Of a stretch of 64,000 nt of DNA, positions 18,196-64,000 are shown piece by piece. Source of the stretch: a virus. Location of the stretch: the IMG/VR virus record IMGVR_UViG_3300028800_000083; one strand, written 5' to 3'. The notes beneath the pieces were generated by a model. It made no database searches and was not told where the DNA came from. It saw only the letters and a program-made list of their open reading frames with translations. The position numbers and the translations under genes were made by a program. Position 1 is the first letter of the stretch. Each line of letters starts with the position of its first letter.

Positions 18196-18238
18196 GTTGT
18201 TGCATTGACGAACAGCTAACAGGATGATAGACGTTTTG
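18196..18238. promoter_or_regulatory. conserved motif copy 2 (TTGCATTGACGAACAGCTAACAGGATGATAGACGTTTTGCAAG) between divergent effector B and RHH-like gene
   Basis: Nearly identical to the copy at 22302-22339. Quasi-palindromic ends (TTGCA..ACG / CGT..TGCAA). Possible -35/-10 readings in both directions: TTGACG-N17-TAGACG on plus and TTGCAA-N17-TAGCTG on minus. Confidence 0.5.
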
Positions 18239-18421
18239 CAAGACGCAATGTTCGAGCCGAAGCAACAAGCCGCGGAGAAACTCAGCCACTACATCGGTGC
18301 GCGCGTCACCGACACCGAAGAGTCGTGGCTCCGCGCCGAGATGAAGCGCAGAAAGATCACGATGAGTGACTTGATGCGCCTCGCGCTCGGCAAGCTCTTC
18401 GTTTCCAAGAAGACGGGGTGA
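18224..18421 (+). CDS. small ribbon-helix-helix-like protein (possible transcriptional regulator)
   Basis: 65 aa. The C-terminal half, MSDLMRLALGKLF, resembles the CopG/RHH fold. Transcribed divergently from effector B; its start lies within the conserved motif. Confidence 0.4.
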   Translation: MIDVLQDAMFEPKQQAAEKLSHYIGARVTDTEESWLRAEMKRRKITMSDLMRLALGKLFVSKKTG

Positions 18422-18786
18422 CCTTGGCGATCGAGTGCAAGGAGATGCACGAGTGGGCGTCGTGGCGTGACGAGTACACCCTCGCCGACGTCGAGAAGGC
18501 GCTCGCGTTCGCCGGCCTCAAGGGGTGGAAGTTCGACCACTGGTCCGACGGGGACGCGCAGTTCATGCACCCCGGGCCGGTGACGTTCGACGACCTCGCC
18601 AAGCTGCGGGTCACGTTCACGCCCCGGAGCATGGTCGTCGAGGCGGTCGTCGACCAGGACGCGGAGGACGAGCGGTTGGTCGCGTGGGAGCGCGCGGGGG
18701 CTAACCCGCTCGACCGTGGCGCCACGGCCTTGATGGTGCTGGTGACGATGAGCTGGAACGAAGTCTCCGACGCGGGGGCCGCCTGA
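18418..18786 (+). CDS. hypothetical protein
   Basis: GTGA overlap with the upstream gene; 122 aa. Confidence 0.5.
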   Translation: MTLAIECKEMHEWASWRDEYTLADVEKALAFAGLKGWKFDHWSDGDAQFMHPGPVTFDDLAKLRVTFTPRSMVVEAVVDQDAEDERLVAWERAGANPLDRGATALMVLVTMSWNEVSDAGAA

Positions 18787-19388
18787 TGGCCGACGCGTGC
18801 GATCACAAGCGTCGGATCGGGAACCACCGAAGCTCGGCCCTCACGGTCTGCCACGTGTGCCGCGACTTCCTGTGCTCGACCTGCGGCGCCACGATCGACT
18901 GGTACGAGGGGCTCTGCTGCGCCAACCCCGGCGCGCAGTGGCGCTACTGCACGAAGCCCGCGTGCGTTGAGGTGGAGGCCGCGTACCACGGGTTGGACCT
19001 CGACGAGATGGTCCGCTGTCGGGAGGCGCTGCGGGAGAAGCGCGTGCTCAGGCACCTCCAGGATCGAGGGGGCCACGCGGCGTTTGACGCTTTTGGTCCG
19101 CGCAGTCGTGTGGTCGAGGGGTCGTCTTCCGCGACGTCCGTGACGGGCCAGGGCACCGCGACGAGTCGTCCGCCGAACCAACGCTTCATCGAGCCCGTCG
19201 CCTTCGTGCTCGACCCCGGCGAGGCGTGCTGGTGCAACCTCGGTAAGGATTGCGACGGCAGTCACCAGGTCTGGATCGAGGAGCCCACGAACATCTGCGG
19301 TTTCTGCGGCGAGGAGTTCCAGATCTCCGCGACGGACCCCCACTTCTTGAGTGGCCGCGGACCCCGCTGCCCGACGAGGGCGGCATGA
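18786..19388 (+). CDS. hypothetical Cys-rich protein
   Basis: 200 aa; multiple CxxC pairs (CHVCRDFLCSTCG, CGFCGEEF); start overlaps the upstream stop. Confidence 0.5.
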   Translation: MADACDHKRRIGNHRSSALTVCHVCRDFLCSTCGATIDWYEGLCCANPGAQWRYCTKPACVEVEAAYHGLDLDEMVRCREALREKRVLRHLQDRGGHAAFDAFGPRSRVVEGSSSATSVTGQGTATSRPPNQRFIEPVAFVLDPGEACWCNLGKDCDGSHQVWIEEPTNICGFCGEEFQISATDPHFLSGRGPRCPTRAA

Positions 19389-19624
19389 CGGCTGATCCGG
19401 AATACCGGATCGCCTACGACGTCGAGCGTCACAAGGTCGGCTGCGGCTTGGTCCAGGCCGCGCTCGGCGGTGACGTTCCGAAGGTGCTGTTCCACGATTA
19501 CTTCGGCGACGGGCGTGCTTGGACGGTGGCGGCGGGTGATTGTCAGGTCTACACGATCCGGCGGAGCCAGCTGCCGGCGCTCGCCGCGCGCACGCTTCTC
19601 GGACGCGAGGAGACGAGGGAATGA
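19385..19624 (+). CDS. hypothetical small protein
   Basis: ATGA overlap with the upstream gene; 79 aa. Confidence 0.4.
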   Translation: MTADPEYRIAYDVERHKVGCGLVQAALGGDVPKVLFHDYFGDGRAWTVAAGDCQVYTIRRSQLPALAARTLLGREETRE

Positions 19625-19782
19625 CCGACGAGGCGCAGCTCGAAGGTGAGCGGCTGAAGGAGCAGATTCTCCGACTGTTCCCAGTTTCCGGGAGGCTGCG
19701 CAGGATCTGTGACTGTGTCGGGAGGTGCGCTAGCGAGGGCGCCGCGCTGGTGTCCCGAGAGGCGGGGGCAGCGCAGCGGTGA
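19621..19782 (+). CDS. hypothetical small protein
   Basis: ATGA overlap; 53 aa; bridges to the helicase gene. Confidence 0.3.
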   Translation: MTDEAQLEGERLKEQILRLFPVSGRLRRICDCVGRCASEGAALVSREAGAAQR

Positions 19783-21182
19783 CGGTGACGATGCGGCTCG
19801 AGGAGCGTCCGTACGAGGCGAAGGCCGTCCGAGACCTCCGCGTCGAGCTGCCGGCGTACAAGCGGGTGCTCGCCGTCGCGCCCACCGGCGCGGGCAAGAC
19901 GGTGATCGCGACGCTCTTGCTCGCGGTCGAGAAGCGCTGGCGTCGGGTGCTGTGGCTCGCGCACCGCGCCGAGCTGGTCGGACAGGCGCGGGAGAGCCTC
20001 TTTTCCCTCGGCGTCCCGTGCGGCGTGCGGTGTGCGTCGTACGAGGCGCTGCATCCCGACCACGTCGATCGCGAGGCCCGTGTGCAGGTCGGCAGCGTCC
20101 AGACCGTGTCGCGGCAGGAGGTCTTCGACGTCGACTTGATCGTGGTTGACGAGGCCCATCGCGCGATGGCCGACTCGTACCAGGCGATCGCGCGACTCCG
20201 GCCCCGCGCGGAGGTCCTCGGTCTCACCGCGACGCCGCTTCGGATGGACGGGCGCGAGCTGGGAGACTTCTTCCAGTCGCTGCTCGTCCTCGCCAAACCG
20301 AGTGAGCTCTACGCGGAGGGTTACCTCGCGGAGCCGGTCACCTACGCGGCCGGCCCGGAGACGCGGGCGTTGCTTGCGCAGCGTCTTCGATCGGTCCGCG
20401 TCAAGGGTGGTGACTTTCAGTTGGACGCGCTCGGTCGTGCCGTGAACACGACAGACCTCGTGGGCGACGTGGTCAGCGAGACTCGTCGCCTGGCGCCTGG
20501 TGTGCCCAAGGTCGTGTTCGCGGCGACGGTCGCGCACTCGAGAGAGATTGCGGAGCGCTTCTCGGGAGTCGGGGTCCGCGCCGCGCACATCGACGCGGAC
20601 ACGCCTACGGACGATCGGTCGCGCGCCTTGGCGATGCTCGCGTCCGGGGAGCTGGAGGTCGTCTGCAACGTCGAGATCTTGACCGAGGGTTGGGACCTCC
20701 CCGTCCTCGGTGCCGTCGTGGTGGCCAGGCCCACGTGGAGCCTCGGGCGCTTCATGCAGATGGTCGGTCGTGTGCAGCGGCCCGGCAGCGGCCCTCCGAA
20801 GTTGGTCCTCGACCATGGCGGAAACGCCGACCGGCTCCAACACTTCCCTGGCGAGGACGTTGACTGGAAGCTCGCACGAGGCTCTCGAAAGTTGAAGAGG
20901 AGAGCACCCCCGAGCGTGCGTCTCTGCGTCGCGTGCTGCGCCGTCCTACGGGAGACTTGCGAGGTGTGCCTCCACTGCGGCACGGCGCAGCCCCGGAGCA
21001 CGAAGCGCCTCGTCGAGGAGCACGAGGCCGAGCTGGTCGAACTCGATCGTGCACGCATCGAAGCGCTGCGGAGGGGCGTGCGTCAGCGTGCAGAGGAGGT
21101 GGCGCGGAGAGTCGGAGCACCTGCGAGCTGGGTGGACACCGTGGTTGAAGCTGTGGTCCTGCGCGGTGGGAGAGGGCGCTGA
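19779..21182 (+). CDS. SF2 DEAH-box helicase (ResIII/Rad25-like) with C-terminal zinc ribbon
   Basis: Walker A APTGAGKT, DEAH box (VVDEAHRA), motif III TATP, motif VI QMVGRVQR, C-terminal CVACC..CEVCLHCG. Confidence 0.85.
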   Translation: MTVTMRLEERPYEAKAVRDLRVELPAYKRVLAVAPTGAGKTVIATLLLAVEKRWRRVLWLAHRAELVGQARESLFSLGVPCGVRCASYEALHPDHVDREARVQVGSVQTVSRQEVFDVDLIVVDEAHRAMADSYQAIARLRPRAEVLGLTATPLRMDGRELGDFFQSLLVLAKPSELYAEGYLAEPVTYAAGPETRALLAQRLRSVRVKGGDFQLDALGRAVNTTDLVGDVVSETRRLAPGVPKVVFAATVAHSREIAERFSGVGVRAAHIDADTPTDDRSRALAMLASGELEVVCNVEILTEGWDLPVLGAVVVARPTWSLGRFMQMVGRVQRPGSGPPKLVLDHGGNADRLQHFPGEDVDWKLARGSRKLKRRAPPSVRLCVACCAVLRETCEVCLHCGTAQPRSTKRLVEEHEAELVELDRARIEALRRGVRQRAEEVARRVGAPASWVDTVVEAVVLRGGRGR

Positions 21183-21187
21183 CGTTG

Positions 21188-22276
21188 ATGGGGAGCCTGA
21201 AGTTTGAGTTGCCGACTAAGCAGTGTCAAAACTGCGAGCGCCTATTCGAGCGGCGTGTTGATGAAGCAGCTACCAACTACAGGCGCAGAAAGACGTGCAG
21301 CTGGGAGTGTCGGAATGCATTGTTAGCTTCGTTGAGGGAAGTGCCTGGCGTCCCAGTCCCCGCCTTCCGAAGATGCGCTGAGTGTGGCGAAGACTTCGCG
21401 CGTGGTCCTGACGAGAAGGCGTCAGAATTCTTGCGGCGGGCGACGTGTAGTCGTGTTTGTGGGAGACGTCAGGCGGCCAAGACGAACTCGAAGCATAGCA
21501 GGGAGTTGTCGAAGGCGTGCCGTAACTGTGGGGACGTCTTCTTCCGGCAGCCCGGGATTTCGCCGGCAGCCTTCGCGCGACGTCGTGTCTGTAGTCCCGC
21601 GTGCCATCAAGCGAGCTTTCGGCTAGCGACAACGGCTGATGATCTTGAGCGTACTTGCGTCGTGTGTGCGGCGGTGCTCGTGCAGCGTCCCAAAGAGAGC
21701 ACCCGCGAATTCTTGGAGCGACTGACCTGCGGAGTCCGTTGTGGCAGCGGTTTGCGCAAGGCACGCCTTCCCAAGAAGCTTGTCGACTATTATGGCGTGA
21801 CGTTGGCCTTCACAGAGGTTGTTGAGATAGAAGGGAAGAGCAAGTGGGCTGTAGAGCGCGCGATCGATCGCGGCAGGATCCCAGGCGTCGGCTGGATTGC
21901 GAGCGCGCCGGTCGCAGCACCCAAGAAAAAGTATTCCGGCCCGTTGGTCAAGACGTGCAGTGTTTGCGGTATCCCGTTTCCGCGTACGCCGAAGAATGCC
22001 AGTAACTTCGCGGTGCAGACGGTGTGTGGCGCGACTTGCCAGGGCGTTCGCAATCGGCTGGTCGTCGATCCCAACAGGCGTTGTCTGGCGTGCGCCAAGT
22101 TGCTGGTATGTCGCGCGCTGGAGCCGAATAACGACTTCGCCAAGAGGCTTACGTGCAATCGTGCCTGCACGCTGGTGCTCAAGAAACGGGGCGCGGCGAC
22201 CCTGGGGCCCAAGGCGCGGATGACCAGCGCTGGCGAGGCGCGTGTGCTCGGCTCTTTGCCCCCAGCGTCGGATTGA
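21188..22276 (+). CDS. zinc-ribbon repeat protein (six tandem ~50-aa CxxC..(T/V)C..C modules)
   Basis: Six repeats of CxNCxxxFxR..(21)..TCSxxC (CQNCERLF..TCSWEC, CAECGEDF..TCSRVC, CRNCGDVF..VCSPAC, CVVCAAVL..TCGVRC, CSVCGIPF..VCGATC, CLACAKLL..TCNRAC). Lies directly downstream of the helicase. Confidence 0.7.
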   Translation: MGSLKFELPTKQCQNCERLFERRVDEAATNYRRRKTCSWECRNALLASLREVPGVPVPAFRRCAECGEDFARGPDEKASEFLRRATCSRVCGRRQAAKTNSKHSRELSKACRNCGDVFFRQPGISPAAFARRRVCSPACHQASFRLATTADDLERTCVVCAAVLVQRPKESTREFLERLTCGVRCGSGLRKARLPKKLVDYYGVTLAFTEVVEIEGKSKWAVERAIDRGRIPGVGWIASAPVAAPKKKYSGPLVKTCSVCGIPFPRTPKNASNFAVQTVCGATCQGVRNRLVVDPNRRCLACAKLLVCRALEPNNDFAKRLTCNRACTLVLKKRGAATLGPKARMTSAGEARVLGSLPPASD

Positions 22277-22301
22277 GGACGTTCCTGTTGACGTCTCCAC
22301 G

Positions 22302-22339
22302 GCTGCATTGACGAACAGCTAACAGGATGATAGACGTTT
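22302..22339. promoter_or_regulatory. conserved motif copy 3 (TGCATTGACGAACAGCTAACAGGATGATAGACGTTTGG), upstream of gene 22386
   Basis: A 36-nt identity with copy 2. Lies in the 110-bp intergenic region about 47 bp upstream of the AAGGACGA-ATG start at 22386. Confidence 0.5.
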
Positions 22340-22385
22340 GGCCGGCGCACTCGGTTTTACGAGCGCTCTACAAAGGACGACACGC

Positions 22386-23213
22386 ATGGCGAAGCAACAA
22401 TCCGACTCCACCGAAGTGCACATCGTCAACGTCGAGCGCGGCAGGGTCACCTTCCACCTCATCGGCACCGCGCCCCTACTGCACAACTGCCTTAACAACA
22501 AGGCCCGGCAAGAGTTGCTCCTGCCGTCGGGTCGCAAGACCGAGGCCGAGCGCAAGACGACGCTGAAGCACCAGCCCCTCGAGGAGTTTCGCTCCTCGAT
22601 CTACTTCAATCATCGGCCCGAGGGTCCGACGCTCGTGCAGCACCTGTCGAGCGCGTTCCGCGGAGCGATGCGCTCAGCCGCGCTCGACTTGCCCGGCGTC
22701 ACGAAGGCCGAGATCGGGCGCCTGCTCTGGGTGGATGGAGACCGCGTCGACATCTACGGCCACCCACAGATCGACATGCGGATTGTCCGCCAGGCCGGCA
22801 TGAACCGCACGCCCGACGTGCGCACGCGCTGCATCATGCCCGAGTGGGCGTGCGCGATCACGGTGTCGTTCACCAAGCCCCAGCTCAAAGAGCAAGCCGT
22901 GGCGAACTTGATCACGGCTGCCGGCCTCTACATCGGAATCGGCGACTATCGGAACGAGAAGGGGGCCGGCAACTACGGGTTGTTCCGCGTCTGCGCGGAC
23001 AAGGATCCGGACTACGTGCGGATCCGGAAGGCCGGTCGTAAGGTGCAGGAGGCCGCGATGAAGACGCCCGAACCATTCAACGAGGAAACGGCCGAGCTCC
23101 TGACGTGGTTTGAGGGTGCGGTGGCGGAACACCGATCCTTCGCGCCGCTCACGTCGGCGTCGGCGTCGGCGAAGGGCAAGAGGCGCGGCAAATCGAGCGA
23201 GGCGCCGTCGTGA
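22386..23213 (+). CDS. hypothetical protein
   Basis: AAGGA RBS then ATG at 22386 (the ORF-track start at 22338 is less likely). 275 aa, coding-like. Confidence 0.6.
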   Translation: MAKQQSDSTEVHIVNVERGRVTFHLIGTAPLLHNCLNNKARQELLLPSGRKTEAERKTTLKHQPLEEFRSSIYFNHRPEGPTLVQHLSSAFRGAMRSAALDLPGVTKAEIGRLLWVDGDRVDIYGHPQIDMRIVRQAGMNRTPDVRTRCIMPEWACAITVSFTKPQLKEQAVANLITAAGLYIGIGDYRNEKGAGNYGLFRVCADKDPDYVRIRKAGRKVQEAAMKTPEPFNEETAELLTWFEGAVAEHRSFAPLTSASASAKGKRRGKSSEAPS

Positions 23214-23680
23214 CGAGCGCGGAGCGGCGGGCGATCGCGCAGAGGTTGGAAAAACTGACCGCTCGCGGCGGCGGCACGCTCACGGCGGCGGCCGTGGTCG
23301 AGGACGCGCGAAATTCGACGAGCCCCCTGCACGCGAGGATCTTCGGGCTGTCCGACGCCGAGGCAGCCCACGAGCACCGCCTCGACCTCGCCCGCCAACT
23401 CATCCGATCCGTCCGCGTGACGGTCACCGTTGACCAGCGTCCACTGTCGGTCGTCGCGTACGTCCACGCCTCAGGTGGCAGCAGCAGCTACGTGCCCACG
23501 GCGCATGTCGTCGACGTGCGCACGCGTGGAGTGGAGACGCTCCGCGTGGAGTTCGAGCGCGTCAAGGCGGCGATCGAGCGCGCGCGCGACCTCGCCGACG
23601 CGCTCGGGCTTCGCGCCGAGTTTGGCGAGATGCTTGCTGACGTGAAGGCGCTCCTCGTGCCGCTGCGGCGGGTGGCGTGA
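23210..23680 (+). CDS. hypothetical protein
   Basis: GTGA overlap with the upstream gene; 156 aa. Confidence 0.5.
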   Translation: MTSAERRAIAQRLEKLTARGGGTLTAAAVVEDARNSTSPLHARIFGLSDAEAAHEHRLDLARQLIRSVRVTVTVDQRPLSVVAYVHASGGSSSYVPTAHVVDVRTRGVETLRVEFERVKAAIERARDLADALGLRAEFGEMLADVKALLVPLRRVA

Positions 23681-23699
23681 CCGTGACCGCATGACGACA

Positions 23700-24005
23700 G
23701 GTCCTCGGTAGATAAGGCGCGGCTTGGTTGGGCATGGCGAGGTAAGGCCTGGCGAGGTAAGGCTGGCATGGGGCAGGGCGAGGCCCGGCTTGGCGGGGCA
23801 GGGCTCGGCACGGTTGGGCGAGGCGTGGCAGGCAAGGCGTGGCCGGGTAAGGTCTGGTTAGGCAAGGCAAGACAGGGCTTGGCAGGCGTGTCAAGGCTAG
23901 GCAAGGCTCGGCTCGGCTCGGCTCGGCTCGGCTGGGCACGGCAGGCACGGTGCGGCGCGGCAAGGTTCGGCACGGCAGGCGCGGTTCGGCGCGGTTCGGC
24001 GCGGC
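23700..24005. repeat. ~300-bp G-rich tract with 5-nt periodicity (GGNNN)n, including perfect (GGCTC)x4
   Basis: ggcga ggtaa ggcct ggcga ggtaa ... ggctc ggctc ggctc ggctc ... ggttc ggcgc ggttc ggcgc. All six frames are open. Lies immediately upstream of the sigma-factor ORF. Confidence 0.7.
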
Positions 24006-25718
24006 ATGGCAAGGCTGGGCCTGTATTCTTCGCGGTCCGTCAGATCATTAGCGAGATCACTCTACGGTTCGCAGCTTGGCGCCTGGAGGCTTGCAACCTC
24101 TGCTAGGGTCGCGGCATGTGCGACGAGCGGCATGGTCCTTACTGAAGGCGCGCGCTTCGTCACGCCCCGCGTGCGATCGCGCCTCCCGCTGAAGCGTTCA
24201 CTTGCGGCGGTGGGTGTGGCTACGCGGCGACCGCTACGTCTCACGGTTCGAGGACTCGCACCAAGAGCCTTGGCTTCGCAGCAGCCGGCCAAGGGTGCCT
24301 CCGAAATGGAGATTGCAGTCGTCGGTCGTCGACCGACTGATGATCGAGACGGTAAGTCTGTCGCTTCACCTGTTTCAACTCCTGCACATGCAGTGCTTGA
24401 AGACGCAGTAACGCTTGGGCGCCAGCGCAGCGCCGCGGCCAGGGGATCGAAGGTCGAAGGCCGCCGTGTGAAGGGGGCTGTGAAAGGAGTTGCTGTGAAG
24501 GGCTCTCCTCAAGTGAGCCCTTTCGTGGCCGAGAGTATTGCGCCCTCGGTACTGGTCCCCCCGGCACCGCTCCAACTTCAATCGCGGTCGTCGCTTGAGA
24601 CTGCGAAGCCCCCCGCGGTTGCGGCGGCGACTGACCCGCGTGTCCAGCAGGCGGCAAGCTGCCTCGATCGCGTGTCGTCGAAAGGGGTGCTCTCGCCCGA
24701 CGAGGTGAACGACCTGCACCAGTCGATCGAGGTGCTGGAGGTCGAGACTTGGCGCCTGGCGCTGGGTTCCGAGGAGTCATCGACCGCGACACGTCGTGTG
24801 ATCGATCGGTACGTCGCCGCACAGGCGTCTTCCAGTCATCCGTCTCCGCACATCATCGCGCTGCGCTCGATCTTGGCAGCCCACGACGGCCACGGGATGA
24901 CCTGCGCCTCCTTACGCGCGGCCGACCTGGACCTCGAGCTGATGATGCTGGTGGTCGTCGAGCTTGAGAGGCTGCGTCAGGTTGTCGAGCCCCTGCGCCG
25001 AGCGCACGACGCCGCGCAGCGGCTGCGCGCACGGTTCGTCGCCGCGAACATGGGCCTCGTCCACAGCATCGCCCGCAAGTACGCCTGGTCAGCCACGCCG
25101 TTCGCGGACCTCATACAGGACGGCACGCTCGGGCTCATGCACGCGATTCCGCGCTTCGACCGTGCGAAGGGCTTCCGTTTCTCGACGTACGCGTTGAATT
25201 GGATCCGTCAGGGGATCGTGCGGCAACTCCACGATTGTGGAGAGAACGTGCGTATCCCCGTCCACGCGCACGAGAGCTTGTACAAGATCAACAAAGCTCG
25301 TTCGCATCTTCGCGCGCAGCACGGGCACGATCCATCGGACGCCGAACTCAGTGCAGCGACGGGCATCAAGGTCGACGTGATCCAGAAGCTCGGCAAGGGG
25401 ATCGTCGGGGAAGCACGCATGTCGCCCGAGGTGACCGATCGCCTGTTCGGCAAGCTGCCCGACGCGGCAGAGTCCGCGGTGGATGTGTTAATCGCGGGCC
25501 AAGACCGTGCGGTCTTGCACGCCGCGATCGCCAAGCTGGCCCCACGCGAGCGCCTCGTGGTCGAGCGGCTGTACGGGTTTGTTGATGACGGCGAGGGGTG
25601 CACGCTCAGGGAGGTTGGCGAGGACGAGGGTGTGTCACGCGAGCGCATTCGACAGATCCAGGCGGCGGCGATCGCGAAACTGCGCAAGTTCCTGCTAGCG
25701 TCGGGAGCACGCGGATGA
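24006..25718 (+). CDS. sigma-70 family RNA polymerase sigma factor (RpoD-like) with long low-complexity N-terminal extension; true start uncertain (possibly 24306)
   Basis: Region 2 reads DLIQDGTLGLMHAIPRFDRAKGFRFSTYALNWIRQGI. Region 4 reads LREVGEDEGVSRERIRQIQAAAIAKLRK. The first ~300 aa are Ala/Ser/Val-rich low complexity. Confidence 0.8.
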   Translation: MARLGLYSSRSVRSLARSLYGSQLGAWRLATSARVAACATSGMVLTEGARFVTPRVRSRLPLKRSLAAVGVATRRPLRLTVRGLAPRALASQQPAKGASEMEIAVVGRRPTDDRDGKSVASPVSTPAHAVLEDAVTLGRQRSAAARGSKVEGRRVKGAVKGVAVKGSPQVSPFVAESIAPSVLVPPAPLQLQSRSSLETAKPPAVAAATDPRVQQAASCLDRVSSKGVLSPDEVNDLHQSIEVLEVETWRLALGSEESSTATRRVIDRYVAAQASSSHPSPHIIALRSILAAHDGHGMTCASLRAADLDLELMMLVVVELERLRQVVEPLRRAHDAAQRLRARFVAANMGLVHSIARKYAWSATPFADLIQDGTLGLMHAIPRFDRAKGFRFSTYALNWIRQGIVRQLHDCGENVRIPVHAHESLYKINKARSHLRAQHGHDPSDAELSAATGIKVDVIQKLGKGIVGEARMSPEVTDRLFGKLPDAAESAVDVLIAGQDRAVLHAAIAKLAPRERLVVERLYGFVDDGEGCTLREVGEDEGVSRERIRQIQAAAIAKLRKFLLASGARG

Positions 25719-26386
25719 GGTCCGTCGTCGTCACTGGCTACGTCGAGATCCCAGACCACCCTCGTGGTCGGGAGGAGTACGAGGGCCTCGGCGCGCGGCT
25801 CGCTGACCTGCGCGCCGCGCCGGTGAGCCTCGCCCGGTGCGCGCTCGACGAGTGCTGGCTGGACGTGCACGCCCGCGGCGTGGGCGTCCGGGCCGCCGAC
25901 GGGGGCGACCCCGCGAAGAACTCGCTCGCCTACCACAGCGTCCAGCACCAGAAGACGGCTTGGTTGGCGGAGGCCGCGGAGGCGTACCCGTGGGCGGAGG
26001 TCATGGTCTGGGTTGACTACGGGATCTTCCACCAGCCCGGCATCACCGTGGAGGTCCTCGACGCCTTCCTGCGCCGCGTCCGTCCCGATGAAGAGGTCGC
26101 GATCCCCGGCGCGTGGGAGCGCGCGGACGTCGCTGCCTCCGTCTCCGCCTCCGCAGAGTACCCGGACTGGCGCTTCCTGGGGTCGTCCCTCGTCGTCGCG
26201 CGCCAGCTCGCCGAGCCGTTCCACGACGCCGTCCGCGCGGTGACGCTCGCGCGGCTCTCCCGCGATCGCCTGGTGACGTGGGAGGTGAACGACTGGGCGG
26301 AGGTCGAGCGGCGGGGGACCGTGCCCATCCGGTGGTACCAGGCCGACCATGACCACACGCAGTTCACGAGCTACCCAGACGCATGA
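25715..26386 (+). CDS. hypothetical protein
   Basis: ATGA overlap with the sigma factor stop; 223 aa. Confidence 0.5.
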   Translation: MRSVVVTGYVEIPDHPRGREEYEGLGARLADLRAAPVSLARCALDECWLDVHARGVGVRAADGGDPAKNSLAYHSVQHQKTAWLAEAAEAYPWAEVMVWVDYGIFHQPGITVEVLDAFLRRVRPDEEVAIPGAWERADVAASVSASAEYPDWRFLGSSLVVARQLAEPFHDAVRAVTLARLSRDRLVTWEVNDWAEVERRGTVPIRWYQADHDHTQFTSYPDA

Positions 26387-27033
26387 AGGTCGCGGTCTAC
26401 ACGGCGATCACTGCGGGCAGGGACTCCGTCAAGGATCCGCCGGTCCACGAGGGCGTCGACCGGATCTTGTTCACCGACCGACCGCGCGACCAGCTCGGGC
26501 CCACCGTCTGGGACGCGCGGCCGGCGTGCGCGCTCTTCACCGACCCGCGGCGGAACTCGCGGGCGCACAAGATCCTCGCGCATCAGTACCTCGACGAGTA
26601 CGACTACTCGCTGTGGATCGACGGATCGGTCTGGCTCCGCGCGTCGCCGCGCACGCTCGTCGCCGCGCACCTGCTCGACGCGGACGTGGCGATGTTCAGG
26701 CACCCGGCGCGCAGCTGCCTCTACGTGGAGGCGGCTGGTCTCGCGGGCGCGGGGTACGACGCCGCCGAGACGTTCGCCGACCAGGTCGCGAAGTACCGTC
26801 GAGTCGGTTACCCGGCCGACAACGGCCTCAACGAGTGCGCGGTGATCCTCCGGCGGCACAACGCGCGTACGGCCGCGTTCAACGACGCCTGGTGGTCGGA
26901 GTATTGCCGGCACTCCTGCCGCGACCAGGTGAGCGTGAACTACGTCGCTCGATCGACCGGCGTTCGCCTGGCGCTCTTGCCGGGCACCGTCCAGGACAAC
27001 CCGGGGATCGTCTACTACGAGGGGCACCTGTGA
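26383..27033 (+). CDS. hypothetical protein, possible DUF616/TOD1-like glycosyltransferase fold
   Basis: Start overlaps the upstream stop. N-terminal MKVAVYTAITAGRD resembles the YTAIxGxYD signature. The family assignment is tentative. Confidence 0.5.
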   Translation: MKVAVYTAITAGRDSVKDPPVHEGVDRILFTDRPRDQLGPTVWDARPACALFTDPRRNSRAHKILAHQYLDEYDYSLWIDGSVWLRASPRTLVAAHLLDADVAMFRHPARSCLYVEAAGLAGAGYDAAETFADQVAKYRRVGYPADNGLNECAVILRRHNARTAAFNDAWWSEYCRHSCRDQVSVNYVARSTGVRLALLPGTVQDNPGIVYYEGHL

Positions 27034-27293
27034 TCAAACCGTGGCGCTGGATCGATCGGACGGGCGGCTTCTCGATCCGTGGTGGCCGGTGGGAGCTGGT
27101 CGACGGGCGCGGACGCGATCGGGCAACGATCTGGGAGAATGCGGCCGACCGCTTCACGTGGCACACGTGGGACGAGCAGGGTACCGGTGGCGAGAACGAC
27201 GTGGCCGTGTCGCTCGACGACGCCAAGCGCCACTGCGTCGCGGCGATCGTGCTCCAGGGCTGGGCGCCGGGTGGCTGGGAGGTGAGGTGGTGA
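27030..27293 (+). CDS. hypothetical small protein
   Basis: GTG at 27030 in a GTGA overlap; 87 aa. Confidence 0.4.
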   Translation: MIKPWRWIDRTGGFSIRGGRWELVDGRGRDRATIWENAADRFTWHTWDEQGTGGENDVAVSLDDAKRHCVAAIVLQGWAPGGWEVRW

Positions 27294-28271
27294 CGTGGTG
27301 AAGGGCCTAGAAACGGCGTGCCCCCGTCGTGGCACGCGCTACGGTACGCACTCGTGACGCAGCTCGCGGTCATCACCGACGTCCACGCGGACGCGCACGC
27401 CCTGCGCGAAGCGTTCGCTATTGTCGACGTCATGCTGCGCGAGGTGCCCGTGCGTCGTGCGAAGGTCGTCCCGCTGCGCAGCCGCGCGCGCTCCGCCTAA
27501 TTGACTGTCAGACCCGCCGTGATCCGGGCGTCTCACGGGCATGCAGGCCAGAGAATTCATCATCGCGCTCGTGCACGTCGACATGGAGCACGGTTACGCA
27601 GGAGACCTCATCGAGGGCGTGGGAGCGCGTGGCTCCGTCGTCACGCGCTGTGCTGGAGCGCGGCGCTTCAAGTCGCTCAAGCGGGCGCTCGACGCGGCGC
27701 AGGGCTGGACCTGGTACGCGGACATCGTCCGGGTCATGGCCGTTGAAGGTTGAAGCGCACGGGAAGCGCGGATCTTTCTTCTTTCTTGACCGTCAAACCC
27801 CCTCACGCGAAACTGAGGTCGTGCCACGAGTCTCGAATTTTGTGCGGGAATTCAAGGGCATGCGGGGATTCAAGGACGGCTGGTACTACAGGTTGACTGA
27901 GGGATATCCCTGGATCGGACCCTTCGTGACAGAGCGCATTGCGGGTCACGCGAGAGCGCATGTGACCAGTAACGTCAGAGACGTCTGGTCTGAACCACCG
28001 CAGTGGCTCAAGATCTCCACGTCCGTCGCCCTTGGTCGTCTCTCCCTGATACCGCCCCGCGGCGCCCCCGCATTTAAGATCCCTGCGACGAGCCTGCACA
28101 CGGTCCCGGTCCCGGCATCAGCGCCACTTCAATCAAACGGCTACCAAGCGCGACCACGACACGCATTGTCCGCCCGTCAAGAAGCCCCCGTAGGGCGCGA
28201 TAAGAGCGCTGCTCCAGAAGCGGTCATGGTCCCGCGTCGGCGCGGTTCACGAACAGTCTGATGCGGGTCTA

Positions 28272-54595: not shown

Positions 54596-55363
54596 TCACG
54601 TCGACCAGCCCTTCTGAGCGTCTAGCCAGCGCTGAATCACGGCAACGCGCGCTTCCTCGCGCGCTTTCTCTCGCGTCTCTTCGCGGACCTGTTTCTCGCC
54701 GGTCAGTTCGGCAATCGCGTCGTGCAGAAGCGTCTGGAAGATGGGGCCATGCTGCTCATAGTTTGGTGCGGCGAGGTGTGCCAACTCGTGGATGAGCGTC
54801 GCCAGATCGTCGCCAGCGTTCGCGCCGGTCGTAACAACCAGGCGCTGCAAGCCAACCCGCGCGTGACCGCTAGCGCGCTGTCGGCCACGCTGGATCATGA
54901 CCTCGTCAAGCCCCTCAAAGGCGCAAGAGCCGGGATTCGCGTGCAGGAAAGCCTCGGCGTTCTCGCGCGGGACGATCGTGCAGAGCGTGTTGCCCTGGCG
55001 GATCACGATCGTCGGCGCCCAGAGCCCGTAGCCCTGCGTGACCAGGTGCCAACGGCAGTGCTTGCAGCGCAGGGAAGCGCCGATCGGATCGGGGACGAGG
55101 CCGGCATCGCACGAGGGGCAGTAGCGCTGGCCAGCCGGATGGTTCTCGGCAAAGGCACGCCGGAGCGAGGAGAGTCGAACGATTCTCGGCACCCACGCGC
55201 GGAGCCAGTTGGCTGCGTCGGGGATCGCGCGGTTGAATGATGTCGCGAGCGCCGCGTGCATGACCTCGGTGGACGTCTGCTGGTCCTGGTGCTTCGACCA
55301 AGGACGCCGAGACCTCAGGATCCGCGCGACCACTTCGTCGACCACTTCGTCGTTATTATTCAA
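54596..55363 (-). CDS. HExxH zinc metallopeptidase (SprT/DUF45 YgjP-like)
   Basis: LIHELAHLAAPNYEQHGPIF, plus zinc ribbon CPSCD..CKHCRWH. Confidence 0.65.
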   Translation of the reverse strand: MNNNDEVVDEVVARILRSRRPWSKHQDQQTSTEVMHAALATSFNRAIPDAANWLRAWVPRIVRLSSLRRAFAENHPAGQRYCPSCDAGLVPDPIGASLRCKHCRWHLVTQGYGLWAPTIVIRQGNTLCTIVPRENAEAFLHANPGSCAFEGLDEVMIQRGRQRASGHARVGLQRLVVTTGANAGDDLATLIHELAHLAAPNYEQHGPIFQTLLHDAIAELTGEKQVREETREKAREEARVAVIQRWLDAQKGWST

Positions 55364-55406
55364 GCGTAACTCCTTGAGCAGGCGTTAACTGGATTCGTTC
55401 CGGTTG

Positions 55407-55616
55407 TTACCCGCGGCGTCTTGCGGTGAGGCACTTCAACGCGGCCATCTTCGCTGCGTACGCGATCGTCTGCATCTCGGCTTCCGTGAAACCAGGCTCG
55501 ACGGCCTCGTCAAGGCCGAGGTTGGCCACCACCTTGTCACGCTGCATGAGGTGTCCCCTGCCGCCGTCGCGTGCGTCACGTGCGTCGCGGTACCCCGACC
55601 AGTAGACGTGGATCAT
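55407..55616 (-). CDS. hypothetical small protein
   Basis: MIHVYWSGYRDARD...; 69 aa; weak. Confidence 0.25.
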   Translation of the reverse strand: MIHVYWSGYRDARDARDGGRGHLMQRDKVVANLGLDEAVEPGFTEAEMQTIAYAAKMAALKCLTARRRG

Positions 55617-55846
55617 GGTCTCCGCGTGCGGGGGCCCGGCGTCGAGGGAGGAGAAGGCGCGCGGGTTGATCGTCTTGGTCCACGCGGGGGCACGCTTCGT
55701 CTTCGTCTTCGTTTTCGTTTCACGCTTTGCGGTCACGCGCGTTCTCCTTCGTGGCTGTTGTAGATCATTCTCCGCGTCCCCATGCACTCGCGGCGAGTGC
55801 AATTTCGATCTCGTTGTGGAACGGCCCGCGTTCGGGATCGGACAGG

Positions 55847-56419
55847 TCACCGCCGCTGGCCAACCAGGCGGACTTCGTGGCGTCCATCCGACCTGCGACA
55901 TTCGCCCGTGGACGCGCACTCCACGATGACGGGGCGGTCGTCGTAGGGGTTCACGTCGTGGCCCATCCTCGCGACGACGTCGCTGATGAGTTGCTTGGTC
56001 ATCACTGTGGGGACTGGGCGCTCGAAGAGCCAGATGAGGAAGTGGCGCAGCGCGCCTGCGCGGTCCTCGTGGGTGCGCGGACCGTCGCAGCCCTCGCCGG
56101 GTCGCGCGTGGCACTTCTCGCAGGCGACGTCGCTCGGTCTGAACGGCAGGAGACCCATCACCGCGAGCGCCGCGCTCTCGCGGAGGCCGATCGCCGGGCA
56201 CCGCTCGCGGGCGCGCGCGATCAAGTCGGCGCCGTCCTTCACGTTCGCGTCGATCAGCGCGTCTATCGAGGGGTGCTCCACGGACATGATCGTCGTGCGC
56301 GTCGTCGTAGACTCCACGTAGACGACGTCGCCACGACACGAGCCGTCCGGTCGATCGTAGACGTCCATCGCCAGGAAGTGCCCGGAGAGCCCGACGGTGC
56401 CGCGCTTGGTCTCACTCAT
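55847..56419 (-). CDS. hypothetical protein
   Basis: 190 aa; CEKCH..C pattern. Confidence 0.45.
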   Translation of the reverse strand: MSETKRGTVGLSGHFLAMDVYDRPDGSCRGDVVYVESTTTRTTIMSVEHPSIDALIDANVKDGADLIARARERCPAIGLRESAALAVMGLLPFRPSDVACEKCHARPGEGCDGPRTHEDRAGALRHFLIWLFERPVPTVMTKQLISDVVARMGHDVNPYDDRPVIVECASTGECRRSDGRHEVRLVGQRR

Positions 56420-56843: not shown

Positions 56844-57665
56844 TCACGCGGCCACCGCTTCTTCGTCGACCTTCTTGGGGTAGGCGACCGGGTCGCCGTT
56901 CGCGTCGACGATCGCGAGCCGCGCGACGTCCTTGCGCAGCCGCCGGTCCAAGGCCCAGAGGTAGCGGTAGTTGCCGCGGTGACGCATGCGGCGGGCGACG
57001 CCCGGGAGCTGCGCAGTCAGCCACGCTCCGAGGTCCTGCCCGAGGTCGAGCGGGGGCACCGCGCCGTGCTCGACGAGCTTGTTGATCGCGGCCCGGTAGC
57101 CGCGGGCGCGCGCGGGGATCTTGGACAGCGTGCGATCGGAGAGCACGGTGCCGTCGGGGAGGAGCCAGATCTTCCGCGCCTGGGTTCGGCCGCCGTAGAC
57201 CGCGTTCGTGGCCTGGTAGATGTTCCCGACGTGACCGGGCAGCACCAGGGTGCCGTCGGACGCGCGGCGGGGGCACGGGTCGCTGTGGCTGACGAGCGCC
57301 TCGATACCCTTGGCGCGCAGGCGATCGAAGCAGCGCGCGAGGAACCAACTCTCGCCGTTGCCGGCCACGCTCGAGAGCAGCACGAAGCGCCCCAGCTCGA
57401 TGCCGGCCATGCGCTCGCAGGGCAGCCGTCGCAGTACAGCCTCGTTGGGTGGGTGCGAGAACACCGCGACGCCGACGAGCAGCGCTCCCTGGTAGAGGCC
57501 GAAGCGCGCGCGGGCGGCGGGGTAGCTGCCGCTGTAGTGGTGCTCCTCGACGAAGGTCCTGGGCGTGGTGTCGTCGAGCAGCTCGACGACCTCGTGGGCC
57601 CGCGTGTCGATGATCTCGCTCGGGTCGCGCCAGGTGCCGAGGCGCTGGTACCAGCGCTGGTTCAC
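56844..57665 (-). CDS. hypothetical protein
   Basis: GTG at 57665 (VNQRWYQRLGTW...EHHYSGSYPAA...LVGVAVFSHPP); the upstream Arg-rich extension is rejected. Confidence 0.45.
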   Translation of the reverse strand: MNQRWYQRLGTWRDPSEIIDTRAHEVVELLDDTTPRTFVEEHHYSGSYPAARARFGLYQGALLVGVAVFSHPPNEAVLRRLPCERMAGIELGRFVLLSSVAGNGESWFLARCFDRLRAKGIEALVSHSDPCPRRASDGTLVLPGHVGNIYQATNAVYGGRTQARKIWLLPDGTVLSDRTLSKIPARARGYRAAINKLVEHGAVPPLDLGQDLGAWLTAQLPGVARRMRHRGNYRYLWALDRRLRKDVARLAIVDANGDPVAYPKKVDEEAVAA

Positions 57666-58129
57666 GGGGTGTCTCTCTCGACGGTGGCGGCGAGTTGTTG
57701 CTTCAACCACTGGAGGCGCTGGCCGACCTGCATCTTGGCGAGCGGTTCGTGGAACGTCGCTTGGTGGAATCCCGCGCTCCGGATCGGCTGCGCGTAGTCT
57801 TTCCCGGCGTAGACGTGGATCTGACGATCTACGCCCTGGTGACGGTTCACGATTGAACCCCACACGCGGAGACCCCAGATCACGCGCCATTCCTTGGCGA
57901 TGTTGCCCATCGTGAGGTCGTACGGCGCGACCACCTGGTCGAGAGCTACCAACTCGTGCTTGGCGCTGATGACGTAGACGACGTCGTGACGGCGCTCCGC
58001 GAGCTCCAGCGTCGATCGAAACAGCTGCGACGTGTAGAACTGCCGCGCGGGCGCGGGGTGCTTGAGCTTGGGCCCCGAGCAGCCCACGAGCGCGATGGAG
58101 ACGGAGGTCACGACGGCCCTCGCTTGCAT
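57662..58129 (-). CDS. hypothetical protein
   Basis: 155 aa; GTGA overlap with the downstream gene. Confidence 0.4.
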   Translation of the reverse strand: MQARAVVTSVSIALVGCSGPKLKHPAPARQFYTSQLFRSTLELAERRHDVVYVISAKHELVALDQVVAPYDLTMGNIAKEWRVIWGLRVWGSIVNRHQGVDRQIHVYAGKDYAQPIRSAGFHQATFHEPLAKMQVGQRLQWLKQQLAATVERDTP

Positions 58130-61172: not shown

Positions 61173-61438
61173 CGCGGTTTCTCCGTGCCGTCAGGCCAGA
61201 TGCTTCCGAGCACAGCTTCGTACGACGTCCTGACTTCATAGCTCCAGCGACGCTTCGTCGGGAACCACTCCGCGGTGACGATGCGCTGCTCGCCGTCCTT
61301 GTCCTTGAAGACGGAGACCACGTGCAGGAGCGCGTCCACCTGCTTGACGCGACCGCCGCCAGCGCCGTGCCGCGTGGCGTGGCGGAGCGTGGTGCCGACC
61401 TTCGGCGGCCACCATGTGGGCGTCTCGCTGCGCTTCAC
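61163..61438 (-). CDS. hypothetical small protein
   Basis: 91 aa. Confidence 0.35.
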   Translation of the reverse strand: MKRSETPTWWPPKVGTTLRHATRHGAGGGRVKQVDALLHVVSVFKDKDGEQRIVTAEWFPTKRRWSYEVRTSYEAVLGSIWPDGTEKPRCP

Positions 61439-62430
61439 GGCGTCACCTCGTAGTCCGACACGACGAAGCCTTCCTCCTCGGAGCCCGCGAGCGTCGGCCC
61501 CCAGTACCAGACGTCCTTGTAGCGCCCGAACAGCCCTTTGCCGGCACGGTAGTCCTTCATGTGCCCGCGCTTTCGGTGGCGCCGCGGCGTCGAGCCGTCA
61601 CCGGGTAGCCCCTCGGACGCGATCGTGCGGGGCGTCTTGTCGAGGTCGACGCGCACCGTGTGGTACGACACGAGCGGCTTCTTGCCACTCTTCACGCGGG
61701 ACTTCTGAAAAGCGTCCGGTGCCCGGTGCTCGATCGTGTCGATGTTGGCGCAGTTCATCATCGCGAGCGTCGTCCAGCCGACGAGTGACGCAGCGCCGAC
61801 CTGCACCGACTCGTCCTGGGACAGGATCGATCCGTGGCTCATCCAGAAGTTCAGAAGCGTGCCGTCAGCGGCGACGGAGATCGTGCCGACATGGTAGGGA
61901 CCGCGCAGCCCCGAGATGTGCGCGCCGTCGTTCTTGTGGGCGAACTCCAGGAAGTCCAGCGTCAGGTAGATCCACCGGCAGCGAACGTCGCGCGAGAACT
62001 CGACGATCTTTGTCGGGGTCGCCTGCGCGCCGTCGCCGATGATCGTTCTCGCGATCTCCTCTGCCTGTGCGGGCGCGCAGGCCACGAACAGCATGCCCAT
62101 CCGCTTGGCGGTCGGGAGGCGGGGATGGTCCCACTCGACGAAGAACTTCGTGTGCGGGGGCACGAGGCACTTGAGGTCGCTCCAGAAAGCGGCGTGGGCC
62201 TCCTTGGCGCTCTTGCTGGAGCCGTCGCCGCTCAGGTAGTTGGCGTCGAAGAAGCGCGCGACGTTCGTCGCTTCGACGCACACCGCCCCGCCGAGGATCT
62301 GGCGCATCCCCGCGTTGTGCTGGAACACCATCTCCTGGTCCAGCGCGACGTCCGTGGCCGGCAGTGGCGGCACGATGATGCCGGACAAGAGCGCGTCGAG
62401 CAGGCGCGCGCGGACAGGCTGCTTGCTCAT
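61435..62430 (-). CDS. hypothetical protein
   Basis: ATG at 62430 (MSKQPVRARLLDALLSG); ~331 aa. Confidence 0.5.
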   Translation of the reverse strand: MSKQPVRARLLDALLSGIIVPPLPATDVALDQEMVFQHNAGMRQILGGAVCVEATNVARFFDANYLSGDGSSKSAKEAHAAFWSDLKCLVPPHTKFFVEWDHPRLPTAKRMGMLFVACAPAQAEEIARTIIGDGAQATPTKIVEFSRDVRCRWIYLTLDFLEFAHKNDGAHISGLRGPYHVGTISVAADGTLLNFWMSHGSILSQDESVQVGAASLVGWTTLAMMNCANIDTIEHRAPDAFQKSRVKSGKKPLVSYHTVRVDLDKTPRTIASEGLPGDGSTPRRHRKRGHMKDYRAGKGLFGRYKDVWYWGPTLAGSEEEGFVVSDYEVTP

Positions 62431-62584: not shown

Positions 62585-62902
62585 TCATTCGGAGGGCTCC
62601 GGTTGAGGTTGAGGCTTACGCTGGAGCCACCAGCCCCACTGCTCGTGCTGCTTGCCGTCCGCTTCCCACGCCTCGCGTTGGGGCGCTCCGAGGAGTTCCC
62701 AGCCGTCCGCCAGCATCTCCAGGAGGCAGGTGTAGCGAGGGATGTTCTTGGGCGCAGGTGTGTAGCCGATGAAGATCTTCCCTGCGTACTCGTCCCCGGG
62801 GCGCGACTTCTTCACGAGCAAGCTCGCGTCCTCGAACGTCCAGCCGTCGATCTCGCTCCGCAGTGACGGGCTGACTGTGCAGACGCTCGCGACCTGTATC
62901 AC
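62585..62902 (-). CDS. hypothetical protein
   Basis: GTG at 62902 in a GTGA overlap; the upstream His/Arg-rich extension is rejected. Confidence 0.3.
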   Translation of the reverse strand: MIQVASVCTVSPSLRSEIDGWTFEDASLLVKKSRPGDEYAGKIFIGYTPAPKNIPRYTCLLEMLADGWELLGAPQREAWEADGKQHEQWGWWLQRKPQPQPEPSE

Positions 62903-63297
62903 GTGGTCTCCTGGTCGTGAGGGGATTCCGACCCCGGCAGCTTCATGCACTCTTTGTGCTGGCGCTCGATCGCGCGCATCGTCTCGCGCAGCCACGAGCG
63001 GATCGTGCGGATGAGCGCGTGGTCGTGCGTGTGGTATTCGAGCTGCTCGGCGACCTTGGTGGTGATGTTGAGGTCCGTGTGGGATACCGGGTAGAAGCTC
63101 GGCCACTCGGTGCCGCGGGCCGTGTTGAACAGACCGTTGATCACGCCGTGGTCCCCCAGTGCACGGCACCGGGCGTCGTAGTGATGCTTGCTGGCTTCCT
63201 TGAGCAGCTGCGCCCACGCGATCGGGATCGACACGTTCAGGCGCACTTCGTACGTGAAGCTGTCCTGGACCGGGGCGGTGGGATCTTGCGACGTCAC
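62899..63297 (-). CDS. hypothetical protein
   Basis: GTG at 63297 in a GTGA overlap; 132 aa. Confidence 0.35.
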   Translation of the reverse strand: MTSQDPTAPVQDSFTYEVRLNVSIPIAWAQLLKEASKHHYDARCRALGDHGVINGLFNTARGTEWPSFYPVSHTDLNITTKVAEQLEYHTHDHALIRTIRSWLRETMRAIERQHKECMKLPGSESPHDQETT

Positions 63298-63515
63298 GAC
63301 GACGCCTCCTCGGAGGTCATGGGCTTGGTCTCCTGTCGGCCCAGCGTCATCAAACGAACGTGGTCGTAGCCGGACGCAGCGTCCGTGCAACCCCGCCGCG
63401 CGGCGCCACGGGCCATCGTCGAGAGCAGGGAGGGCGGCGCGCCTGCCGCGAGCAGCGCCAGCGCGTGCTCGACCGCTGCGAAGAAGTGATCCGGGTGGGC
63501 AGACCGGGTGTTCAT
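63294..63515 (-). CDS. hypothetical small protein
   Basis: ATG at 63515 (MNTRSAHPDHFFAAVEHAL). Confidence 0.3.
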   Translation of the reverse strand: MNTRSAHPDHFFAAVEHALALLAAGAPPSLLSTMARGAARRGCTDAASGYDHVRLMTLGRQETKPMTSEEASS

Positions 63516-63733
63516 TGGAGGGGGAGTCCCTTCCGAGCGCAGACGTCCTGGACGAAGGGGAGGGGCAGCTCGGCGATCGTCGCGATCCGGTCGGCGGTGC
63601 ACACGGCCTCGCCCTCGTGGTAGGCGACGGTGCGCCATGCGCGCGCGACGGCGGCCTCTCGCGCGAGGATCCTCGCGGCTTCGTTCGCCGAGCTGTCGCC
63701 GGTCTCCTGCGCGACCTGGTTGATCGACTTCAC
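63512..63733 (-). CDS. hypothetical small protein
   Basis: GTG at 63733 preceded by GAGGAGG; 73 aa. Confidence 0.35.
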   Translation of the reverse strand: MKSINQVAQETGDSSANEAARILAREAAVARAWRTVAYHEGEAVCTADRIATIAELPLPFVQDVCARKGLPLQ

Positions 63734-63999
63734 GAGTACGCCTCCTCGGAGACGATCTCGGCGTCGACGGCGTCGTCCACCGGGCTCCACCAGGTCGGCG
63801 CCTTGACCAAGGCGGTGCCGGCCGAGCGGGCCTGCGTCGGGCGGGTCTGCGTCGGGGCGGGGGCGCGGGTCGTCGTGCTGCGGGGCGTGCGACGCCGCGC
63901 GCGGGTCGCGGCGCGGCGGGCGTCCGCCTCGCGGCGACGGCACGCGGCGTCGCGGGCGAGCGCGATCGTCGCCCCGTTGCTGACCGCGTTGATGAGGAT
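63730..63999 (-). CDS. hypothetical protein, C-terminal part (5' end outside window)
   Basis: Open frame to the window edge ending ..VDDAVDAEIVSEEAYS; its stop overlaps the next GTG. Confidence 0.3.
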   Translation of the reverse strand: MLINAVSNGATIALARDAACRRREADARRAATRARRRTPRSTTTRAPAPTQTRPTQARSAGTALVKAPTWWSPVDDAVDAEIVSEEAYS

Positions 64000-64000
64000 C

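Follow-up and report, generated by a model that had tools for sequence, protein, structure and literature searches.

The IMG/VR virus record IMGVR_UViG_3300028800_000083 raises the question of what kind of DNA carries two compact CRISPR effectors, here called effectors A and B, each next to a long repeat array. We analysed a stretch of 64,000 nucleotides from this record, called the window throughout (GC ~67%), and in particular positions 18,224-64,000, which follow effector B. The original prediction, made from the sequence of the stretch, described this part as a phage-like mobile region with its own sigma factor and chaperone. Our results agree that it is mobile, phage-like and not ordinary chromosome, given the gene architecture, a 461-kb contig, the matches to PHROGs, a tail fibre and the genes for initiation factor IF-3, sigma factor and DnaJ; capsid, terminase and portal genes were not found. 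The region is very probably part of a giant virus-like mobile element, and not of an ordinary chromosome. We estimate a probability of about 0.65 that the window is a non-structural segment from the interior of a huge tailed phage genome of at least 461 kb; in view of the integrase and the ParB-like genes, this phage may be temperate, or plasmid-like when it is carried.

Gene layout of the window

The raw list of open reading frames (ORFs) is uninformative at the GC content of the window, and for this reason genes were called by third-position GC and a codon-usage score. This gave 92 genes in positions 18,224-64,000, with a median length of 115 aa and a mean of 153 aa (58 of the 92 are at most 150 aa long), and a coding fraction of 0.93. 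Overlaps are found in 55 of the 88 neighbouring same-strand gene pairs, and 44 of these are 4-bp overlaps (28 GTGA, 16 ATGA). From left to right there are 14 genes on the plus strand, eight on the minus strand, a single one on the plus strand and a run of 69 on the minus strand (34,080-63,999), see Table 1. These numbers bear out the predicted set of more than 80 tightly packed, mostly small genes with ATGA/GTGA coupling and long same-strand runs. The genes had also been placed downstream of effector B, which is correct for the order of the coordinates only; in terms of transcription it does not hold, as both effectors are on the minus strand.

No housekeeping operon is found among the window genes, as had been predicted. 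The functions listed at that time (SF2 helicase, sigma-70 factor, DnaJ, two phosphoesterases, radical SAM enzyme, RNA-ligase-like protein, SPFH protein, metallopeptidase and ABC ATPase) were all recovered with Pfam, PHROGs and NCBIfam, the weakly supported ones being the radical SAM enzyme, the first phosphoesterase, the SprT-like peptidase and the RNA-ligase-like protein.

High-GC DNA gives many spurious ORFs, and the window has 480 ORFs of at least 60 aa, so the small genes could in principle result from over-calling in an ordinary chromosome. We consider this very improbable. The genes were selected by third-position GC and codon score, and public metagenome contigs with independent gene calls have the same small genes. 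Identical protein sequences are met again in other samples, PHROG or Pfam families are matched by many of the small genes, and true chromosomal loci of Kofleriaceae, called in the same way, give large genes.

Extent of the element and its flanks

Many metagenome contigs of one wetland/rhizosphere sample family (ENA ERZ272453xx-4xx, JGI 33000312xx-317xx, Logan SRR854xxxx) encode proteins identical to those of the window. Proteins from both flanks are brought together, unchanged, on a JGI contig of 461,400 bp, among them those encoded at 61435-62430 (-) and 22386-23213 (+) of the window and at L007:1806-2423; identical proteins also lie on contigs of 302,737, 154,736 and 151,752 bp, and the element thus belongs to the class of genomes larger than 200 kb. 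In assembly ERZ27245409, the 154.7-kb contig ends and the 151.8-kb contig starts inside CRISPR array 2. By contig look-ups we walked outward from the window and read about -46 kb to +108 kb in window-equivalent coordinates, ~154 kb in total (positions with an L number refer to fetched loci).

Over 152 kb the element has 269 genes with a median length of 112 aa, arranged in long co-directional runs and mostly without a family match. The same orphan-gene architecture continues for at least 46 kb to the left and at least 44 kb to the right of the window. Core chromosomal genes in the flanks, named with the original prediction as the finding that would speak against it, were looked for and not found from -46 kb to +108 kb, and no junction with a chromosome was met there. 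Attachment sites were not seen in the ~154 kb either, and a scan of the GTDB species representatives with a flank protein found nothing.

A stand-alone infC gene, encoding IF-3, is located ~21 kb left of the window start (L014:14221-14964, NCBIfam equivalog score 215 bits against a cut-off of 60). It lies amid orphan genes and not in an infC-rpmI-rplT operon. The flanks also encode an ATP-grasp protein (phrog_7313), three to four PAPS-reductase-like proteins, a ParB-like protein (phrog_1033, 5e-13), a tyrosine integrase (phrog_1, 6e-36) together with a second integrase-like fragment, and an SNF2 helicase. A weak ParB-like motif is seen in window gene g36 as well.

A family of small proteins joins the two sides of the CRISPR loci. 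At least 13 proteins share a mostly N-terminal tag, [K/R]-K-x-x-(A/S)-Q-L-(D/Q)-(R/A)-E-(I/V)-..-A-L (for example MKRKKTAAQLDREIAAALA), whose form suggests a targeting or processing signal. Tagged proteins are encoded at 28322-28837, 34080-37254 and 42276-42614 of the window and at L014:13081-13509, L014:14966-15980, L021:19825-20310 and L107:8626-9282, so that the family is present on both flanks of the CRISPR loci. Because the same orphan genes and the same tag family stand on both sides, the CRISPR-Cas12m pair is internal to the element and not at a chromosome boundary, and both Cas12m-type effectors with their arrays belong to the element itself.

Affinity to phages

About 20 of the 92 window genes match PHROG phage families, including Mom, sigma factor, DnaJ, phosphoesterase and seven or more families of unknown function. 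On the same contig, ~31-34 kb past the window end, there is a gene for an 844-aa tail-fibre-like protein (L025:14092-16626) that matches phrog_819 (1.7e-59), phrog_6320 (2e-47) and phrog_5073 (1.5e-43). It is a single tail-fibre-like gene, not a tail module. The protein has internal repeats of ~90 aa and forms, with two small same-strand neighbours, a minus-strand cassette in a plus-strand block. In a JGI variant contig a partial copy of the gene is called on the opposite strand (L107:2-1279), which could be an artefact of gene calling or an invertible segment.

The RNA-ligase-like gene points to huge phages in particular. All phage matches listed for it (the best 15 of 153 records) come from huge phages of 385-642 kb, at 29-42% identity, among them LR745208 (485 kb, 42%), XacN1 (385 kb), LR756502 (642 kb) and Lak phages (540 kb). 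Genes of the Pfam families RNA_ligase and RlaP are carried by a relative of the element (L135).

Large contigs also carry other families of the element. A 327-aa family, encoded beside the tail-fibre cassette, is present on 25 IMG/VR contigs, five of them of 221-381 kb, and on metagenome contigs of 200-502 kb, and a tagged zinc-ribbon family is found on contigs of up to 379 kb. The recurrence of these two families on large contigs points to a clade of related huge elements. The element has three or four families in common with each of three high-GC IMG/VR contigs. Among the genes of these contigs are those for a large terminase and a portal, for a tail J-like and a tail assembly protein, and for a tape measure and a minor tail protein.

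Missing hallmark genes

Genes for capsid, portal, terminase, prohead protease, tail tube or sheath and baseplate gave no Pfam or PHROGs match in the ~154 kb. As a positive control, the same PHROG scan was applied to three windows of 16-20 kb from related IMG/VR phages, where it detected TerL, portal and tail genes. Terminase, capsid and portal had been proposed as the genes that could confirm the original prediction; none of the three was seen there. Look-ups on close relatives gave the same orphan-gene style and no structural genes.

These absences weigh against a huge phage, and so do several further results. tRNA genes are absent too, with 0 in the window and 0 across ~150 kb of the element. 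When 9-12 concatenated window proteins were compared by tblastn with GenBank/INPHARED phages and PLSDB plasmids, no record shared more than one gene; in a 40-kb window around the best huge-phage match, the RNA-ligase-like gene is the only one in common. The ~154 kb that were read are about one third of the 461 kb, which weakens the case for a phage and is at the same time the reason why the missing hallmark genes do not refute it.

Alternatively, the element could be a giant non-viral extrachromosomal element, a megaplasmid or plasmid-like DNA of a myxobacterium that has accumulated phage-derived genes and uses its Cas12m arrays in conflicts between elements. Some further points against a phage speak for this explanation, beside the missing capsid, portal and terminase genes. 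The nearest relatives of some window genes are on plasmids: the Mom-like protein is 44-47% identical to proteins of Streptomyces plasmids and g16 is 41% identical to one of a Paracoccus plasmid, and weak relatives of effector B are present on two plasmids. For window gene g98 and for effector B, the copy of IMG/VR that was searched (2.9 M contigs) gave no relatives, which is weak evidence. The ParB-like and integrase genes would suit a plasmid or an integrated element equally well, and the arrays, with at least 33 repeats in one and at least 90 in the other, have a size more typical of cellular or plasmid loci than of phages; the median in huge phages is six (PMC7162821). Sequences longer than 200 kb that are plasmid-like were recorded beside the huge phages in the same study.

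We nevertheless regard a non-viral element of this kind as possible but unlikely. No replication initiator, relaxase, type IV secretion gene or ParA partition ATPase was found in the ~154 kb. A median gene length of 112 aa with ~80-85% of the genes without a family match is unlike known plasmids. The tail-fibre match is strong, many of the matched families are phage ones, and the genes shared with relatives adjoin TerL, portal and tail genes there. Among the phage records listed, the RNA-ligase-like gene matches huge phages only.

CRISPR arrays and effectors

The repeats were counted with up to 8 mismatches allowed, and the numbers in Table 1 are lower bounds. Together the two arrays hold roughly 120 spacers. 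The original prediction gave 40 to 108 spacers and called this unusual for a mobile element; the recount replaces these figures by at least 33 and at least 90 repeats, and the arrays stay far above the median of huge phages.

Each effector has its own repeat family, and the two families are distinct. Both arrays have perfect repeats and an AT-richer, leader-like stretch near the effector and decayed repeats at the far end; in array 1 the degenerate repeats are those with low coordinates, and the perfect ones stand towards the effector. A gap of 150-300 bp separates each effector from the perfect-repeat end of its array. These intervals between the last perfect repeat and the effector (5822-5970 and 15907-16211) are AT-richer and both contain the sequence TTGTCA(A/G)AGAA, which the two loci thus share as a candidate leader or promoter element.

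Effector B matches the Cas12m structure PDB 23vw_A with an E-value of 1.3e-25 over residues 288-606, the RuvC/TNB half. Cas12j gave no match to the effectors in PDB or Pfam searches, and the comparison with Cas12j in the original prediction was inexact: the effectors match Cas12m and are type V-M-like. Pfam matches to Cas1, Cas2 and Cas4 were found neither in the window nor in 90 kb of flanking sequence (~154 kb in total).

A comparison of 83 spacers with the window and every fetched locus gave no target: the matches were confined to copies of these arrays in other assemblies, and no spacer hit the element itself. In IMG/VR, neither of the two newest spacers has an exact match. About 40 spacers overlap with assembly ERZ27245409 (window 2909-15906 against L007:12512-20494); each of them is the same in both or differs by one base, which gives no hint of spacer turnover from sample to sample.

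Host

Over its full length, the DnaJ protein shares 63% identity with the chromosomal DnaJ of two Kofleriaceae metagenome-assembled genomes, while the next best genome reaches 52%. Judged from this protein similarity, the host is likely a myxobacterium of high GC content and a relative of Kofleriaceae. An insertion sequence (IS) fragment in the left flank has a Kofleriaceae protein as its best named relative. This fragment, an IS5-like DDE transposase, differs between assemblies (L007:526-1185 against L008:526-1471), which indicates an insertion or deletion polymorphism.

These Kofleriaceae loci have a GC content of 66-70% and, when called like those of the element, genes of 316-984 aa that are recognisably of housekeeping type. 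By reading the translations we identified GlnE-like (984 aa), Ser/Thr kinase, aminotransferase-like and OmpA-like proteins. The genes of these chromosomal loci are large, while those of the element are small.

With a host of this type, the element might also be a very large integrated island or a degraded prophage in a Kofleriaceae-type chromosome. Myxobacterial genomes exceed 10 Mb and could accommodate it. A tyrosine integrase with a second integrase-like fragment, a GC content (~67%) equal to that of the Kofleriaceae loci, a DnaJ close to the host type and the polymorphic IS fragment are all in line with integration. We find this explanation improbable, as the 154 kb contain no core chromosomal gene and no junction, and as the orphan proteins of both flanks are united on one single contig of 461 kb. 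IF-3 is encoded by itself amid orphans and not in its usual operon, and the genes are intact, tightly coupled and 93% coding, contrary to decay.

Comparison with known systems

According to Al-Shayeb et al. 2020 (PMC7162821), huge phages can encode IF-3, sigma-70 and type V-U systems without Cas1, Cas2 or Cas4. The element resembles them in its size of at least 461 kb, in its mostly small genes of unknown function, in having its own sigma-70 and IF-3, and in its compact effectors of the type V-U class beside arrays without these adaptation genes. Its RNA-ligase-like gene is 34-42% identical to those of 485-642 kb phages in that data set. It differs from them by the lack of capsid, portal and terminase genes in ~154 kb and of tRNA genes in 150 kb, by the size of its arrays, by its high GC and by a presumed myxobacterial host.

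The nearest precedent is the myxophage MV-1 (GCA_020854145.1, contig 476). A preprint of September 2026 reports that this lineage encodes a Cas12m of 610 aa beside an array of eight spacers, as well as DnaJ and an integrase, and claims it as the first Cas12m carried by a phage (bioRxiv 10.64898/2026.09.14.751636). MV-1 and the element have in common the assignment to a myxobacterial host, Cas12m adjoining an array without cas1, cas2 or cas4, DnaJ and an integrase; this likeness is one of described features. While MV-1 has one effector and eight spacers, the element has two effectors (645 and 651 aa) and ~15 times as many spacers. An HK97 capsid, TerL, portal and tail genes are reported for MV-1, whereas no capsid, TerL or portal gene is seen in ~154 kb of the element. 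The host of MV-1 is assigned to Polyangiales and the signal of the element is to Kofleriaceae. New with respect to MV-1 are the two effectors with distinct repeat families, the ~15-fold number of spacers and the genome of at least 461 kb.

In two reports on characterised bacterial Cas12m (PMC10442227, PMC11013384), the protein is described as protecting by DNA binding and a block of transcription, with no cutting. The effectors of the element are alike in their compact size (~600-650 aa) and in standing singly beside an array, and their best structure match is 23vw_A; they differ in being on giant phage-like DNA and in being duplicated with two repeat families. Cas12j (CasPhi) of the Biggiephages is likewise a compact type V effector on a very large phage-type genome without adaptation genes, but it is a separate effector family, and the effectors of the element match Cas12m.

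Possible functions and significance

As a huge phage, the element would form virions. Its RpoD-like sigma factor would redirect the host RNA polymerase, IF-3 would bias translation initiation, and DnaJ would bias folding, towards the products of the element. The Mom-like enzyme and the several PAPS-reductase-like enzymes may modify DNA, and the RNA-ligase-like protein, carried together with two phosphoesterases, may repair RNA. By analogy with the bacterial systems, Cas12m-guide complexes could silence competing mobile elements or host genes.

If it is a phage, its genome would rank among the largest known for phages, and no earlier huge phage would have been linked with myxobacteria of the Kofleriaceae type. 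Its arrays would be by far the largest borne by a virus, ~120 spacers against a typical six, with two Cas12m effectors and no adaptation genes. This raises the question of how a virus builds or keeps such arrays, for which host Cas1-Cas2 acting in trans, inheritance from a cellular locus and recombination are candidates. A second question is what the spacers silence. Cas12m silencing combined with its own sigma factor and IF-3 would make the element a natural system for testing whether huge phages reprogram host expression by CRISPR.

If it is not a phage, the element would be a new kind of giant mobile element. It could then represent an unrecognised class of extrachromosomal elements of myxobacteria, of about half a megabase, made up almost wholly of small orphan genes in long same-strand runs, many of them with the shared tag, and with its own sigma factor, IF-3 and DnaJ, two Cas12m effectors and ~120 spacers without adaptation genes, and with relatives on 200-500 kb contigs from soil and peat. 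We think this rather unlikely.

Other genes and sequence features

The features of the window are collected in Table 1.

Table 1. Positions of the CRISPR loci and of the genes of the window discussed in the text.
Feature	Position	Strand	Remarks
CRISPR array 1	2909-5821	+	at least 33 repeats (GTCTCGGACGTCAACCGTCCGAGCAGGTGCGATCAC)
Effector A	5971-7908	-	645 aa; Cas12f1-like TNB domain (Pfam); paralogue of effector B
CRISPR array 2	8012-15906	+	at least 90 repeats (GTCGAGACCACCGCGAGGTCTCGCATCGATCGTGCC)
Effector B	16212-18167	-	651 aa; Cas12m-like
Plus-strand block of 14 genes	18248-27753	+	helicase, two PHROG unknowns, sigma factor, glycosyltransferase-like
SF2 helicase	19779-21182	+	ResIII 4e-21, Helicase_C; phrog_16 1e-81
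Zinc-ribbon-like repeat protein	21185-22276		363 aa; ~7 CxxC...C modules
Two genes of phage families, function unknown	22386-23680	+	phrog_4652 2e-11; phrog_15946 4e-8
Sigma-70 factor	24006-25718	+	regions 2, 3 and 4; phrog_351 6e-53
TOD1/MUCI70 glycosyltransferase-like	26383-27033	+	phrog_26101 1e-17
DnaJ, full length	31104-32222	-	J domain, CXXCXGXG zinc finger, C-terminal domain
445-aa protein, weak calcineurin-like phosphoesterase (Metallophos)	32734-34071	+	21.0 vs 21.5 bits
Cluster of small tagged proteins	34080-37254	-	K-K-x-x-AQLDREIA tag
ParB-like nuclease motif protein	34424-34873	-	within the tagged cluster
cpYpsA SLOG-family protein	38398-38973	-	
Radical SAM protein, weak	44682-45479	-	26.8 bits vs Pfam gathering score 29.5; CxxxCxxC motif
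RNA-ligase-like nucleotidyltransferase	46566-47219	-	phrog_548 5e-5; KxDG motif
Metallophosphoesterase	49072-49788	-	Metallophos 3e-9; phrog_1649 1.5e-37
Phage family, function unknown	50358-50903	-	phrog_1229 1e-23
AAA_21/ABC-type ATPase, then phrog_1540 protein	51552-52819	-	ATPase at 51552-52415; weak AriA/PtuA-like
SPFH/Band 7 membrane protein	53324-54226	-	phrog_200 2e-56
SprT-like metallopeptidase, weak	54596-55345	-	HELAH motif
109-aa gene without family match	55407-55736	-	
Phage_zn_bind_8 protein	within 54596-56419	-	
Mom-like DNA-modification protein and DUF6884 protein	56844-58129	-	Mom: Pfam 3e-18, phrog_1384 2e-24
331-aa protein	61435-62430	-	phrog_20769 2e-16; anchor for the contig look-ups

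The helicase is 33-36% identical to the helicases of many phages, and the DUF6884 protein is 40% identical to one of Myxococcus phage Mx4. DnaJ reaches 400 bits in NCBIfam, above the subfamily cut-off of 338, and matches phrog_14336 with 2e-96. The radical SAM protein has distant viperin/MoaA-like matches. PADLOC gave only weak, generic ATPase and helicase matches and no defined defence system, and sequence searches of solved structures with g16, g98 and a 688-aa flank protein found nothing useful.

The sigma factor is RpoD-like but divergent, with scores below the NCBIfam cut-offs. Its top NCBIfam name is MzaA, an identity that we rejected as the score is 181 bits and the cut-off 800. The ORF opens at 24,006, yet its third-position GC is poor up to ~24,650, and judged by this the true start is probably near 24,687. 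The low-coding stretch 23681-24650, just upstream of the sigma gene, is rich in tandem repeats of GGCTC and GGCAAGGCTCGGC with periods of 5, 10, 15 and 25. A second protein, similar to sigma-70 region 4 and partial at a contig end, was spotted by eye ~44 kb right of the window end (L107:9784-10419).

Three paralogous PAPS-reductase/PP-loop ATPases are encoded within 30 kb of the left flank (L007:8257-9066, L013:3607-4590, L014:17835-19037). They adjoin a YifB/ComM-like Mg-chelatase ATPase, and the group may be a DNA-modification module.

Cys-rich small proteins are present in the window. The zinc-ribbon-like protein of 363 aa has a third-position GC of only 0.69 and no family match. A tagged protein of 111 aa (36919-37254) contains ~35 consecutive Asp/Glu residues, the source of a TCGTCC tandem repeat at 37,066-37,159.

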